DNA from: a virus
Lineage: Duplodnaviria; Heunggongvirae; Uroviricota; Caudoviricetes
Reading direction: 5' to 3' (one strand)
DNA: 4,891 nt
IMG/VR virus record: IMGVR_UViG_3300011831_000014
Shown: piece by piece, positions 1 to 4,891 of the stretch
Layout: each line of letters opens with the position of its first letter
Position numbering within the stretch: position 1 is the stretch's first letter
The notes under the pieces: model-generated
What the model saw: the letters and a program-made list of their open reading frames with translations, nothing else
Told to the model about the DNA's origin: nothing
The model's database searches: none
Made by a program: the position numbers and the translations under genes

Positions 1-698
1 TTGAGATCAAAAAAGGGCTGGTTTCGATCCAAGTATACGAAGAAACAGCGGGGATCGGACCAGGAGAGCCCGTAGAAACGACAGGCGCACCATTGTCTGT
101 CGAACTAGCACCAGGTTTGTTGACTCAGATGTTTGATGGGATGACCGATGCGCTGGGTGATTTTGTCACGACAGGCAAGGCAAATTTTCGTTCTTTCGCT
201 ACTTCCGTGATTTCGGATCTTAGTCGAATAGCATTAAAGGCTTCAATTACTGGGATTTTCGACAGCATTAGTAACAGTTCTTCTGGGGGGATTTTAGGAA
301 CTATCGGGAGTGCTATTAGTAAATTTATTCCGAATGCAAAGGGCGGTGTTTATGAGTCTCCGTCATTGAGCACGTATTCGAACGGTATTTATGATTCCCC
401 GCAATTTTTTGCTTTTGCAAAAGGGGCTGGTGTTTTTGGTGAGGCTGGACCGGAAGCCATTATGCCATTAACACGAACTTCCGATGGTTCTCTTGGTGTC
501 AGAGCTATTAATAGTAAAAGTGGTAATGGAGGCGGAGATATTACCTATGCCCCTGTATACCAAATCACTATTCAAAATGACGGCCAGAATGGAGAGATTG
601 GCCCTCAGGCAATAAAAGCACTTATGGGGATGGTTGATCAGCGGGTGCAGGGCAATCTGTTAAATATGCGACGTGATGGGGGAATGTTAAGTGGCTAA
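1..698 (+). CDS. H: Tail tape-measure protein, C-terminal portion (5'-truncated by window start); lambda gpH-like but divergent
   Basis: Open reading frame is continuous from position 3 to TAA at 696-698 with no upstream stop; the 'M' at 93 in the ORF track is a TTG codon inside the frame, not a real start. Sits immediately upstream of M-L-K-I-J. C-terminal motif ...[16 protein letters not shown]...[10 protein letters not shown] resembles the lambda gpH C-terminus as I recall it (...NDGTNGQIGPAALKAV...MRDGGLFSG). AT-rich relative to downstream genes. Confidence 0.85.
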
Positions 699-1029
699 TA
701 CGGAAGAATTTCACTGGTTACCAGAGGATGGAATGAAAACAGAAAATAAACCATCGATAAAAACTGTAAGATTTGGCGATGGTTATGAGCAACGAAGTCC
801 AAATGGACTTAATCATTCTCTGCGCGTTTTCACCTGTGATTTCAAAGTTGAGGCGAATGAACGTGATTCATTTGAAAAATTTTTAGCCCGGCATGAAGGC
901 TATAAATCTTTTTTTTGGCGCCCGCCGGGTATTAACAGAAAAATCAGAGTGGTGTGTCGAACGTGGTCAGCGACAGAACATATCACCTATACCGATTTTT
1001 CGTGTCAGTTTGACGAAGTGGTGATCTGA
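691..1029 (+). CDS. M: Minor tail (tail-tip assembly) protein M, divergent lambda gpM homologue
   Basis: 112-codon ORF beginning at GTG 691, overlapping the H stop; alternative ATG start at 733 preceded by GAGGA. Conserved VRFGDGY...KSF.W.PP...E.VV block matches gpM as recalled; size about that of lambda gpM (109 aa). Stop TGA 1027-1029 overlaps the L start (TGATG). Confidence 0.85.
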
Positions 1030-1727
1030 TGCAGGACATACAACAGGAAACGCTGAATGAATGCATTCGTGCGGAGCAGTCGGCCAGCGTGGTGCTCTGG
1101 GAAATCGACCTGACCGAGGTAGGCGGGGATCGCTACTTTTTCTGTAATGAGCAGAACGAAAAAGGTGAGTCTGTCACCTGGCAGAGTCGGCAGTATCAGG
1201 CCTATCCCATTCAGGGGAGTGGATTTGAGATGAACGGCAAGGGCAGTGCTGCCCGTCCGACACTGACGGTCTCTAACCTGCACGGCATGGTCACCGGGAT
1301 GGCGGAAGACCTGCAGAGTCTGGTCGGCGGAACGGTGGTCCGGCGTAAGGTTTACGCCCGCTTTCTGGATGCGGTGAACTTCGTCAACGGAAACAGCGAA
1401 GCCGATCCGGAGCAGGAGGTGATCAGCCGCTGGCGCATCGAGCAGTGCAGCGAACTGAGCGCGGTCAGTGCCTCTTTTGTACTGTCCACGCCGACGGAAA
1501 CGGACGGTGCCGTTTTTCCGGGACGTATCATGCTGGCCAACACCTGCACCTGGACCTATCGCGGCGATGAGTGCGGTTATAGCGGTCCGGCGGTCGCGGA
1601 TGAATATGACCAGCCAACGTCCGATATCACGAAGGATAAATGTAGCAAATGCCTGAGCGGTTGTAAGTTCCGCAATAACGTCGGCAACTTTGGCGGCTTC
1701 CTTTCCATTAACAAACTTTCGCAGTAA
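1029..1727 (+). CDS. L: Minor tail protein L (tail-tip protein with C-terminal cysteine-rich Fe-S cluster domain)
   Basis: 232-aa ORF; translation [12 protein letters not shown]...NTCTWTYRGDECGYSG...KDKCSKCLSGCKF...FLSINKLSQ is near-identical to lambda gpL as recalled. ATG overlaps the M stop. Confidence 0.95.
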   Translation: MQDIQQETLNECIRAEQSASVVLWEIDLTEVGGDRYFFCNEQNEKGESVTWQSRQYQAYPIQGSGFEMNGKGSAARPTLTVSNLHGMVTGMAEDLQSLVGGTVVRRKVYARFLDAVNFVNGNSEADPEQEVISRWRIEQCSELSAVSASFVLSTPTETDGAVFPGRIMLANTCTWTYRGDECGYSGPAVADEYDQPTSDITKDKCSKCLSGCKFRNNVGNFGGFLSINKLSQ

Positions 1728-1732
1728 ATCCC

Positions 1733-2476
1733 ATGACACAGACAGAATCAGCGATTCTGGCGCACGCCCGGCGATGTGCGCCAGCGGAGTCGTGCGGCTT
1801 CGTGGTGAGAACGCCGGAGGAGGAAAGATATTTTCCCTGCGTGAATATCTCCGGTGAGCCGGAGGAGTATTTCCGGATGTCGCCGGAGGACTGGCTGAGT
1901 GCAGAAATGCAGGGAGAGATTGTGGCGCTGGTCCACAGCCACCCCGGTGGTCTGCCCTGGCTGAGTGAGGCCGACCGGCGGCTGCAGGTGCAGAGTGATT
2001 TGCCGTGGTGGCTGGTCTGCCGGGGGACGATTCATAAGTTCCGCTGTGTGCCGCATCTCACCGGGCGGCGCTTTGAGCACGGGGTAACGGACTGTTACAC
2101 GCTGTTCCGGGACGCTTACCATCTGGCGGGAATTGAGATGCCGGATTTTCATCGCGGGGATGACTGGTGGCGTAACGGTCAGAATCTCTATCTGGATAAT
2201 CTGGAGGCCACAGGGCTGTATCAGGTGCCGTTGTCATCAGCACAACCGGGCGATGTGCTGCTGTGCTGTTTTGGTTCATCGGTGCCGAATCATGCCGCCA
2301 TTTACTGTGGTGACGGCGAGCTGCTGCACCATATTCCTGAACAACTGAGCAAACGAGAGAGGTACACCGACAAATGGCAGCGACGCACACACTCCCTCTG
2401 GCGTCACCGGGCATGGCACGCATCTGCCTTTACGGGGATTTACAACGATTTGGCCGCCGCATCGACCTTCGAGTGA
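1733..2476 (+). CDS. K: Tail-tip assembly protein K (N-terminal MPN/JAB metalloprotease-like domain plus C-terminal NlpC/P60 cysteine peptidase domain)
   Basis: 247-aa ORF starting 5 nt after the L stop; near-identical to lambda gpK as recalled. JAMM motif H-x-H-x7-S-x2-D (HSHPGGLPWLSEAD) at nt 1934-1975; NlpC/P60-like Cys (DCYTLF, codon 2093-2095) and His (PNHAAIY, codon 2291-2293). Internal ATG at 1877 with upstream GGAGGAG would give a 199-aa form. Confidence 0.9.
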   Translation: MTQTESAILAHARRCAPAESCGFVVRTPEEERYFPCVNISGEPEEYFRMSPEDWLSAEMQGEIVALVHSHPGGLPWLSEADRRLQVQSDLPWWLVCRGTIHKFRCVPHLTGRRFEHGVTDCYTLFRDAYHLAGIEMPDFHRGDDWWRNGQNLYLDNLEATGLYQVPLSSAQPGDVLLCCFGSSVPNHAAIYCGDGELLHHIPEQLSKRERYTDKWQRRTHSLWRHRAWHASAFTGIYNDLAAASTFE

Positions 2477-3015
2477 AAACGGGGTCCGAAGCCATCCGGG
2501 CGCTGGCCATGCAGATCCCGGCGTTTCGTCAGAAACTGAGCGACGGCTGGTACCAGGTACGCATTGCCGGGCGTGATGCAGGTGAAACCGAATTGTCTGC
2601 CCGTCTTAATGAGCCGCTGGAAAATGGTGCCGTGATCCATATCGTGCCGCGTCTGGCAGGAGCCAAAAGTGGCGGTGTGTTTCAGGCTGTGCTGGGGGCG
2701 GCTGTTATGGCGGTTGCTATATGGATGCCGGGGGTAGGAATTATGGCGAGTAATCTGCTGTTTTCTCTCGGTGCCAGTATGACGCTTGGCGGTGTTGCAC
2801 AGATGCTGGCCCCTAAACCCAAAACCCCCCGCACACAGACAACGGATAACGGCAAACAGAACACCTATTTTTCTTCTCTGGATAACATGGTTGCCCAGGG
2901 CAATGTTCTGCCGGTTCTGTACGGTGAAATGCGCGTGGGGTCACGCGTGGTTTCTCAGGAGATCAGCACGGCAGACGAAGGGGATGGTGGTCAGGTTGTG
3001 GTGATTGGTCGCTGA
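2374..3015 (+). CDS. I: Tail-tip assembly protein I (N-terminal ubiquitin-like beta-grasp domain, Gly/Ala-rich hydrophobic segment, conserved C-terminus)
   Basis: 213-aa ORF; translation MAATHTLPLASPGMARICLYGDLQRFGRRIDLRV...NGKQNTYFSSLDNMVAQGNVLPVLYGEMRVGSRVVSQEISTADEGDGGQVVVIGR matches lambda gpI as recalled. Start overlaps the 3' end of K by 103 nt in a different frame, as in lambda. Confidence 0.93.
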   Translation: MAATHTLPLASPGMARICLYGDLQRFGRRIDLRVKTGSEAIRALAMQIPAFRQKLSDGWYQVRIAGRDAGETELSARLNEPLENGAVIHIVPRLAGAKSGGVFQAVLGAAVMAVAIWMPGVGIMASNLLFSLGASMTLGGVAQMLAPKPKTPRTQTTDNGKQNTYFSSLDNMVAQGNVLPVLYGEMRVGSRVVSQEISTADEGDGGQVVVIGR

Positions 3016-3030
3016 TGAAAAACGTTTATG

Positions 3031-3060
3031 TGAAACCGCCTCAGGGCGGTTTTGTCGTTT
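3031..3060 (+). terminator. Stem-loop (AAACCGCC-TCAG-GGCGGTTT) followed by a T-rich tract in the I-J spacer; possible weak intrinsic terminator, attenuator or mRNA-stability hairpin
   Basis: Perfect 8-bp inverted repeat 3033-3040 / 3045-3052 with 4-nt loop, GC-rich core CCGCC/GGCGG, followed by TTTTGTCGTTT. Located in the only sizeable non-coding gap in the window. Confidence 0.3.
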
Positions 3061-3062
3061 CT

Positions 3063-3066
3063 GGAG
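3063..3066 (+). promoter_or_regulatory. Shine-Dalgarno sequence for J
   Basis: GGAG 8 nt upstream of the J ATG at 3075; a second purine-rich GAGGA lies immediately adjacent to the ATG. Confidence 0.5.
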
Positions 3067-3074
3067 CGTGAGGA

Positions 3075-4891
3075 ATGGGTAAAGGCAGCAGTAAGGGGCA
3101 TACCCCGCGCGAAGCGAAGGACAACCTGAAATCATCCCAGATGCTGAGCGTGATAGACGCCATCAGCGAAGGGCCGGTTGAAGGTCCGGTGGACGGATTA
3201 AAAAGTGTGCTGCTGAACAGTACGCCAGTGCTGGACAGTGAGGGGAATACCAATATCTCCGGTGTCACGGTGGTTTTCCGGGCAGGTGAGCAGGAGCAGA
3301 CACCGCCGGAGGGATTTGAATCCTCCGGCTCCGAGACGGTGCTGGGTACGGAAGTGAAGTACGACACGCCGATTACCCGGACCATCACGTCGGCAAACAT
3401 CGACCGTCTGCGCTTTACCTTCGGTGTGCAGGCACTGGTGGAAACCACCTCAAAGGGGGACAGGAATCCGTCGGAAGTCCGCCTGCTGGTTCAGATACAG
3501 CGTAATGGTGGCTGGGTGACGGAAAAAGACATCACCATTAAAGGCAAATCCACCTCACAGTATCTAGCATCGGTGGTGGTGGGTAACCTGCCGCCGCGCC
3601 CGTTCAATATCCGGATGCGCAGGATGACGCCGGACAGCACCACAGACCAGCTGCAGAACAAAACGCTCTGGTCGTCATACACCGAAATCATCGATGTGAA
3701 ACAGTGCTACCCGAACACGGCACTGGTCGGCGTACAGGTGGATTCGGAGCAGTTCGGCAGCCAGCAGGTGAGCCGTAATTATCATCTGCGCGGGCGCATT
3801 CTGCAGGTGCCGTCGAACTATAACCCGCAGACGCGGCAATACAGCGGTATCTGGGACGGAACGTTTAAGCCAGCATACAGCAACAACATGGCCTGGTGTC
3901 TGTGGGATATGCTGACCCATCCGCGCTACGGCATGGGGAAACGTCTTGGTGCGGCGGATGTGGACAAATGGGCGCTGTATGTCATCGGCCAGTACTGCGA
4001 CCAGTCAGTGCCGGACGGCTTTGGCGGCACGGAGCCGCGCATCACCTGTAATGCGTACCTGACCACACAGCGCAAGGCGTGGGATGTGCTCAGTGATTTC
4101 TGCTCGGCGATGCGCTGTATGCCGGTATGGAACGGGCAGACGCTGACGTTCGTGCAGGACCGACCATCAGATAAGGTGTGGACCTATAACCGCAGTAATG
4201 TGGTGATGCCGGATGATGGTGCGCCGTTCCGCTACAGCTTCAGCGCCCTGAAGGACCGCCATAATGCCGTTGAGGTGAACTGGATTGACCCGAACAACGG
4301 CTGGGAGACGGCGACAGAGCTTGTTGAAGATACGCAGGCCATTGCCCGTTACGGTCGTAATGTCACGAAGATGGATGCCTTTGGCTGTACCAGCCGGGGG
4401 CAGGCACACCGCGCCGGGCTGTGGCTGATTAAAACAGAACTGCTGGAAACGCAGACCGTGGACTTCAGCGTGGGTGCCGAAGGGCTTCGCCATGTACCGG
4501 GCGATGTCATTGAAATCTGCGATGATGACTATGCCGGTATCAGCACCGGTGGTCGCGTGCTGGCGGTGAACAGCCAGACCCAGACGCTGACGCTCGACCG
4601 TGAAATCACGCTGCCATCCTCCGGTACCACGCTGATAAGCCTGGTTGACGGAAGTGGTAATCCGGTCAGCGTGGAGGTTCAGTCCGTCACCGACGGCGTG
4701 AAGGTGAAAGTGAGCCGTGTTCCTGACGGCGTTGCTGAATACAGCGTATGGGGGCTGAAGCTGCCGACGTTGCGCCAGCGCCTGTTCCGCTGCGTGAGTA
4801 TCCGTGAGAACGACGACGGCACGTATGCCATCACCGCCGTGCAGCATGTACCGGAAAAAGAAGCCATCGTGGATAACGGGGCGCACTTTGA
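3075..4891 (+). CDS. J: Tail tip / central tail fibre host-specificity protein J, N-terminal ~605 codons (3'-truncated by window end)
   Basis: ATG at 3075 opens a frame with no stop through the window end, which is why it is absent from the ORF track. Translation MGKGSSKGHTPREAKDNLKS...VLLNSTPVLDSEGNTNISGVTVVFRAGEQEQTPPEGFESSGSETVLGTEVKYDTPITRTI... matches lambda gpJ N-terminus as recalled. Confidence 0.95.
   Translation, partial: MGKGSSKGHTPREAKDNLKSSQMLSVIDAISEGPVEGPVDGLKSVLLNSTPVLDSEGNTNISGVTVVFRAGEQEQTPPEGFESSGSETVLGTEVKYDTPITRTITSANIDRLRFTFGVQALVETTSKGDRNPSEVRLLVQIQRNGGWVTEKDITIKGKSTSQYLASVVVGNLPPRPFNIRMRRMTPDSTTDQLQNKTLWSSYTEIIDVKQCYPNTALVGVQVDSEQFGSQQVSRNYHLRGRILQVPSNYNPQTRQYSGIWDGTFKPAYSNNMAWCLWDMLTHPRYGMGKRLGAADVDKWALYVIGQYCDQSVPDGFGGTEPRITCNAYLTTQRKAWDVLSDFCSAMRCMPVWNGQTLTFVQDRPSDKVWTYNRSNVVMPDDGAPFRYSFSALKDRHNAVEVNWIDPNNGWETATELVEDTQAIARYGRNVTKMDAFGCTSRGQAHRAGLWLIKTELLETQTVDFSVGAEGLRHVPGDVIEICDDDYAGISTGGRVLAVNSQTQTLTLDREITLPSSGTTLISLVDGSGNPVSVEVQSVTDGVKVKVSRVPDGVAEYSVWGLKLPTLRQRLFRCVSIRENDDGTYAITAVQHVPEKEAIVDNGAHF

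Follow-up and report, generated by a model that had tools for sequence, protein, structure and literature searches.

Descriptions of mosaicism in lambdoid phages go back to the earliest comparisons of their genomes and heteroduplexes. The joints in lambda, HK97, HK022, the mEp phages and the Stx phages are sharp transitions between near-identical and unrelated sequence that lie at or near gene boundaries and keep synteny, and a joint of the same nature is described here in a stretch of 4,891 nucleotides (IMG/VR record IMGVR_UViG_3300011831_000014, Caudoviricetes), which is referred to throughout as the window and supplies all position numbers unless otherwise stated. Nothing in kind sets this joint apart from those others; what differs is its place, where gene M parts from gene L within the tail block. 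Positions 122-4891 very probably represent the tail tip of a Rac-type lambdoid prophage in which a module of low GC (guanine plus cytosine) content meets a lambda-like L-K-I-J cassette at the M/L boundary. The case is one of ordinary lambdoid mosaicism, already known as a phenomenon, and the arrangement has been sequenced and annotated hundreds of times; no description of this particular joint was found in the accessible literature. Tail genes of such phages move together, and a co-transfer module consisting of tail proteins alone has been reported, with individual tail-tip genes not discussed (PMC9836094). In the lambda tail itself, gpM is a six-fold distal-tail ring stacked on the tube and gpL, gpJ and gpI make up a three-fold hub; the E-loops of gpM touch the three-fold gpL/gpJ ring electrostatically, and the C-terminal helix of gpH sits on the gpI tripod (PMC10721106).

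Base composition was examined by gene and by single-change-point likelihood scans. GC content rises from 0.431 over 122-1028 to 0.577 over 1029-4891. On the left side, GC and GC3 (GC at third codon positions) are 0.455 and 0.37 in the 3' end of the tape-measure gene (the lambda H analogue) and 0.41 and 0.345 in M, and on the right side they are 0.565 and 0.69 in L, 0.59 and 0.67 in K, and 0.57 and 0.58 in I. The GC break was placed at 1067 (2-log-likelihood support interval 1011-1081) with a log-likelihood ratio of 33.7, as against a maximum of 6.9 among 200 shuffles, and the GC3 break was placed at 1020 (0.346 to 0.679), with a log-likelihood ratio of 55. The M stop and the L start overlap in the sequence TGATG at 1027-1031. 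The shift is thus real, well above chance, and located at the M/L boundary. A preliminary description of this DNA had proposed an abrupt change near that boundary from two sampled lines, and both its spot values (40.0% GC at 241-300 and 61.7% at 1261-1320) were exact on recount. The interval that it gave, 690-1035, has the joint at its right-hand edge, but is itself gene M.

The break in identity falls at the same place. Similarity to lambda as detected by the Basic Local Alignment Search Tool (BLAST) begins at position 1007; in 100-nucleotide windows, identity to lambda is 38-52%, that is, unalignable, over 101-1000 and 81-100% thereafter, with the exception of a patch at 63-79% within gene I. 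At the protein level, identity to lambda is 30% for the H C-terminus and 42% for M, and on the right side it is 94% for L, 97-98% for K, 79-84% for I and 98% for the N-terminal 605 amino acids of J. The left-hand genes had been described as substantially diverged from lambda, which is correct; the genes from L onward had been called near-identical, which is an overstatement, the DNA being about 93% identical and gene I having a divergent centre. In lambda itself, H and M are rich in GC (GC3 0.66 and 0.65) and unlike those of the window in sequence, and identity to lambda is not uniform across the window but switches at the joint.

The same cassette accompanies other types of H and M. PhiR49_1 carries a lambda-type, 640R1 an Stx-type and mEp460 a cdtI-type H/M, and compared with the window these three have H and M at 27-51% identity and L, K and J at 94-99%; gene I is 79-100% identical in amino acids to that of the window across carriers of lambda-, 640R1/Stx-, mEp460/cdtI- and window-type H/M. 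Change points in identity were located at 1017 for lambda, 1043 for PhiR49_1, 1088 for mEp460 and 1091 for 640R1, and BLAST matches to the other lineages begin at 1007, 1026 or 1077. In the phage collection, the L allele of the window (at least 90% amino acid identity) was present in 116 records; its M allele (at least 99%) was present in 10, the next best match being below 50% and none falling at 50-99%. A literature search for the PhiR49 and mEp332 phage records turned up no paper describing them.

Relationships among the individual genes were compared using all-against-all identity matrices. In the M matrix, the window groups with the ENA33 metagenome contig (83%) and a Citrobacter sedlakii prophage (75%), and its M is 40-51% identical to those of lambda, 640R1, mEp460 and the Stx type. 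The L, K and J matrices place it beside lambda, 640R1 and mEp460 (94-99%), and here ENA33 and C. sedlakii fall outside the group, at 79-92%. Such differing groupings are unobtainable from rate differences, and therefore at least one recombination took place between M and L. They bear directly on the explanation that no exchange occurred, the GC shift being intrinsic to the genes (for example through amino acid or codon selection) and H and M merely evolving faster. Although siphophage H and M as a rule vary more than L, K and J do, the incongruent matrices refute this explanation, the DNA passes from unalignable to more than 90% identical inside about 80 nucleotides, and the GC3 of M goes with lineage rather than gene, being 0.28-0.37 for the window type, 0.65 for lambda and as high as 0.98 among Burkholderiaceae prophages; we regard it as extremely improbable. 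The preliminary description's two central proposals, that a modular exchange had occurred at a gene boundary and that H-3' and M come from a lineage other than that of the tip genes, are accordingly upheld by the coincidence of the composition and identity breaks at 1007-1091 and by the conflict between the M and the L/K/J groupings.

No identity break at M/L was seen with ENA33, the L gene of which is low in GC (GC3 0.38), and this contig looks like a version of the module whose tail tip was not replaced by the lambda-like allele. Similarity to the C. sedlakii prophage starts inside the tape-measure gene (window position about 536) and runs unbroken through M/L; in that prophage (locus L032, 1225-5047), ydaY and the tape-measure gene are separated by about 4 kb with genes of the KilA-N, Arc-like, P22_AR_N and ANT (antirepressor-type) families.

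The arrangement is common. Positions 122-4891 were matched in one piece, at up to 98.5% identity, in 709 of 5,426 complete Escherichia coli genomes, EC93 among them, with a median of three matching places per matched genome. Matches were obtained in about 10 phage records as well, two of which, vB_EcoS-683R6 and Salmonella phage SPF_0923, are named as isolates; identity to SPF_0923 is 99.9% in the left part and about 95% over the whole. Since a single reference (EC93, as well as each of the 708 other genomes) covers 122-4891, the joint is old and widespread and is no event of this window. There is a chimeric join elsewhere in the window, at 122-142 (see below), which might suggest that the M/L joint is an assembly artefact of the same sort; however, with H-M-L-K-I-J contiguous at 95-98.5% identity in the 709 complete genomes, in isolates and in about 65 IMG/VR or genome loci, that suggestion is scarcely conceivable.

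Membership of the window in the Rac type was established through its 98.5%-identical relative EC93, because the window covers just the part that is deleted in K-12. Between the EC93 prophage and K-12 Rac, identity is 99.7% over ydaY and the start of the tape-measure gene (5' end; ynaA) and 95-98% over lom, stfR and tfaR, with gene order unchanged, and the 3' end of the window's tape-measure gene is 100% identical to that of EC93. In EC93, the low-GC stretch (GC 0.41-0.51, GC3 0.35-0.50) extends from the head genes through a 1077-residue tape-measure gene to M, and L-K-I-J-lom has a GC content of 0.55-0.59. Thus H-3' and M, which the preliminary description had taken as the low-GC partner, do belong to it, but in the relatives the partner is a whole structural module of about 10 kb, from head genes to M, of a Rac-type prophage. 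When the exact L protein of the window was looked up, all the matches were in normal Rac-type prophages, with tape-measure genes of the full 1077 residues. The cryptic prophage Rac of K-12 resembles the window's type in its flanking structural genes and their order, as seen through EC93, and differs in having lost exactly the segment covered by the window: an 8.3-kb deletion (L047, ~17389/17390, against L001, 7278 to 15622) removes the 3' two-thirds of the tape-measure gene, M, L, K, I, J and the 5' end of lom. On the evidence of these alignments, K-12 Rac arose by deletion from the intact type of prophage to which the window belongs, and the deletion accounts for the fusion in K-12 of lomR with a shortened ynaA 'tape measure domain' gene. 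An origin of the H/M module in a low-GC enterobacterium (Providencia, Morganella or Xenorhabdus) was also considered and was rejected; the M proteins are at most 44% identical, and no origin could be named.

The modules that meet at M/L are, on the left, a low-GC structural module, of which the window has M and the 3' end of the tape-measure gene and complete relatives have all genes from the head to M, and on the right, a GC-rich L-K-I-J cassette. Lambda has this cassette too, as do two or more other lineages of E. coli phages, with L, K and J proteins at 92-99% identity but H and M at no more than 40-51% to those of the window. The ancestor would have had L-J genes of its own from the same family, such as ENA33 and C. 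sedlakii still possess, and this L-J would have been replaced by, or homogenised with, the lambda-like allele, probably by homologous recombination with co-resident or co-infecting lambdoid phages or prophages. The GC3 of the cassette (0.58-0.71) matches that of lambda V, G, H and M (0.62-0.66) and not that of the Rac-type module (0.35-0.50), and because it equals that of these neighbouring lambda genes, we infer that a lambda-like lineage was the donor and the Rac-type lineage the recipient. In the reverse direction, the cassette would be native to the Rac-type lineage, and lambda and the 640R1-type and mEp460-type lineages would have acquired it there. Rac-type prophages, found in 709 genomes, are common enough to be donors, and the window-type M family has a same-family L-J in all three of its sub-lineages (the window, ENA33 and C. 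sedlakii); but the ENA33 and C. sedlakii L alleles are just 77-80% identical to the common cassette, the GC3 of which (about 0.67) is that of lambda V, G, H and M and not that of Rac-type head-to-M genes (0.35-0.50), and the reverse direction is therefore unlikely.

Several points weigh against the acquisition of a lambda-like cassette by the Rac-type lineage as just set out. The evidence for the direction of transfer is compositional. ENA33 and C. sedlakii diverge from the window to a similar extent on both sides of M/L, and the pairing of this M family with the L-J family is therefore old; many small conversion events, and not one replacement, could have given rise to the state seen in the window. 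The window stops short of the cassette's right-hand end. Finally, it is from prevalence that the M protein of the window would be judged functionally compatible with a lambda-like L and J; the hybrid arrangement with intact frames occurs also in vB_EcoS-683R6, SPF_0923 and the 709 genomes.

The fine structure of the joint was examined for signs of how the exchange took place. Within the L-J family, DNA identity between lineages is about 75-80%, and M and H are unalignable; the depth to which divergence extends into L varies by lineage, so that breakpoints are spread over about 85 nucleotides (1007-1091). This joint would fit homologous recombination at the left edge of shared homology, and its position at a gene boundary would follow from the leftmost possible crossover being at the L start or the final codons of M. 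A dedicated exchange site, with a conserved linker or a specific recombinase in place of a passive homology edge, might be suspected from the confinement of four lineages' breakpoints to some 85 nucleotides and from the conservation of the final 22 or so nucleotides of M and the first 25 or so of L, the rest of M being unalignable. The conserved bases are, however, explained by coding: proteins of the M family carry F-[DE]-x-V as a C-terminal motif, and L has MQDI at its N-terminus. A seven-lineage alignment contained no linker common to all lineages, only the coding-constrained M end and L start being held in common, and mEp460 has a 10-nucleotide spacer with its own ribosome-binding site where the others have TGATG. 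Breakpoints differ from lineage to lineage, no Chi sites were found in the window, no direct or inverted repeats were found in 600-1500, and no mobile-element end was found at the joint. A dedicated site is thus very unlikely. Promoter-like and terminator-like matches were weak, with none at the joint. The first 270 or so nucleotides of L (1029-1300) are 81-87% identical to lambda, as against 94-100% for the remainder of the gene, which may reflect a further sub-boundary or an L N-terminal domain co-adapted with its M partner.

Exchange has apparently not ceased. Among about 65 loci with a window-type M, H and M were 94-100% identical to those of the window (100% in most), and in a tblastn survey of these loci, L was 91-100% and I 79-100% identical. 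The variable L and I, together with the median of three matching places per genome, which supplies partners for recombination, indicate continuing exchange among co-resident prophages. Relaxed homologous recombination of lambda with Rac or other defective prophages has been demonstrated experimentally (PMC3945230). Two IMG/VR loci, L070 and L072, had 100% identical M and very different L, K and I proteins and were rejected as further cases, their DNA being 95% identical with indels and the protein differences a frameshift or indel effect. Indels of about 100 nucleotides in L-K-I wreck the protein matches of these two loci, which may be decaying prophage copies or assembly errors.

The left end of the window has a separate origin. 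All database matches begin at base 122, bases 1-121 being without a phage or E. coli match and not aligning with the tape-measure genes of relatives; these bases had been taken as part of gene H in the preliminary description and are instead Enterococcus DNA. The product encoded by 1-142 matches the E. hirae NtpA structure (E=6e-16), in a frame that runs into the tape-measure gene. A short-peptide search for the V-type ATPase donor returned only fragmented long-read gene calls, and the donor came to light when metagenome contigs were searched with a degenerate DNA pattern: 1-142 has 99.3% identity to contigs L132 and L130, both of which carry on from there as an ordinary ntpA gene, and the L132 protein is 99% identical to that of Enterococcus sp. 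DIV0840c and 92% identical to that of E. gallinarum. In a three-way alignment, the parents overlap in exactly 21 identical bases (122-142), and because the codons for T-Q-M-F-D-G are common to both, the fusion is in frame. Each side is near-identical to an unrelated genome (1-142 to Enterococcus at 99.3%, 122-4891 to an E. coli prophage at 98.5%), in seven donor-type metagenome loci the match to the window stops at base 142, none of the relatives that were examined has the join, and the chimeric tape-measure open reading frame had no match in an exact-protein index. The join is almost certainly an assembly chimera, most likely from de Bruijn-graph assembly of a gut or faecal metagenome. The smallest k-mer in common metagenome-assembler use is 21 nucleotides. 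By a rough estimate, there are about 10^4 21-mers per 4.8-kb contig and about 10^9 distinct ones per complex metagenome, with 4.4x10^12 possible; about one chance 21-mer collision is estimated, and such a join is therefore unsurprising. No biological meaning should be given to this Enterococcus/E. coli end, which shows that short ends of contigs from this data source have to be checked.

The features of the window are listed in Table 1. In a profile search of the window proteins, all tail families scored above the Pfam gathering threshold (bits/threshold: Phage_min_tail 109.8/39, Phage_tail_L 328.7/25, Prok-JAB 53.3/25, NLPC_P60 47.7/23, Lambda_tail_I 83.9/23.8 and Tape_meas_lam_C 64/23), and the reading frames over 122-4891 are all intact.

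Table 1. Coordinates of the genes, the mosaic joint and the chimeric end in the 4,891-nucleotide window.
Feature	Positions	Strand	Remarks
V-type ATPase catalytic subunit A gene fragment (ntpA, ~residues 44-90), Enterococcus	1-142	+	Foreign to the prophage; Pfam ATP-synt_ab_N
Exact 21-nucleotide word GACTCAGATGTTTGATGGGAT (codons T-Q-M-F-D-G)	122-142	+	Three-way alignment; crossover zone of the 5' chimera
Tape-measure gene 3' end (lambda H analogue, last 192 codons)	122-698	+	TAA stop 696-698; Pfam Tape_meas_lam_C, E=1e-17
Gene M (distal tail protein, 112 amino acids)	691-1029	+	GTG start overlaps H end; TGA stop 1027-1029; Pfam Phage_min_tail, E=1e-31
Breakpoint zone of the mosaic joint	1007-1091	+	Final 22 nucleotides of M, TGATG overlap and first ~60 nucleotides of L
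Gene L (hub protein, iron-sulfur domain)	1029-1727	+	Pfam Phage_tail_L, E=1e-98
Gene K (JAB/MPN and NlpC/P60 domains, 247 amino acids)	1733-2476	+	Pfam Prok-JAB, NLPC_P60
Gene I (tail-tip plug/insertion protein)	2374-3015	+	Pfam Lambda_tail_I; start as in lambda
Gene J, 5' 605 codons (central tail fibre/hub)	3075-4891	+	Open frame from ATG at 3075; leaves the window

The right-hand genes agree with lambda L-K-I-J in gene order, in the TGATG M/L overlap, in the K/I overlap and in Pfam families; apart from the AT-rich and diverged H and M, the differences from the lambda tail tip lie in genes I and K. Gene I of the window has a divergent centre and a 10-residue indel, and 2501-2800 forms a second, smaller mosaic patch with 63-79% DNA identity to lambda between ends at 88-98%. 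The RefSeq start of the gene I homologue in EC93 is at the position equivalent to 2413. Gene K is a full frame in the window and is split by a one-nucleotide difference in the lambda reference, which at about 5267 lacks one base relative to the window (about 1866) and PhiR49_1 (GGAGGAGTATT versus GGAGG-CTATT); because the missing base breaks the 247-residue JAB and NlpC/P60 frame, lambda K is annotated at only 199 amino acids from an internal start.

The cut between M and L matches a structural boundary of the tail, and in hybrids made there the proteins within each sub-assembly would stay adapted to one another. Over its last 40 residues, the tape-measure protein of the window has about 45% identity to that of lambda (hand count on the alignment), as against 30% overall, which is consistent with retention of a gpH-gpI contact. 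It is tentatively suggested, at rather less than even odds, that M/L is a preferred, structurally defined point of exchange and that the lambda-like L-K-I-J is sweeping at least four E. coli siphophage lineages by way of co-resident prophages, across H and M that are 30-50% identical. If this is true, the contacts of gpM with the hub and of the gpH C-terminus with gpI would be generic enough to work over that divergence. The window shows the portion of the Rac-type tail that is missing from the K-12 reference, and it illustrates that the lambdoid tail block is not one unit of exchange, the receptor-binding tip L-K-I-J moving apart from the tape measure and the distal tail protein. A separately moving tail tip is relevant to host-range engineering and to prophage typing.

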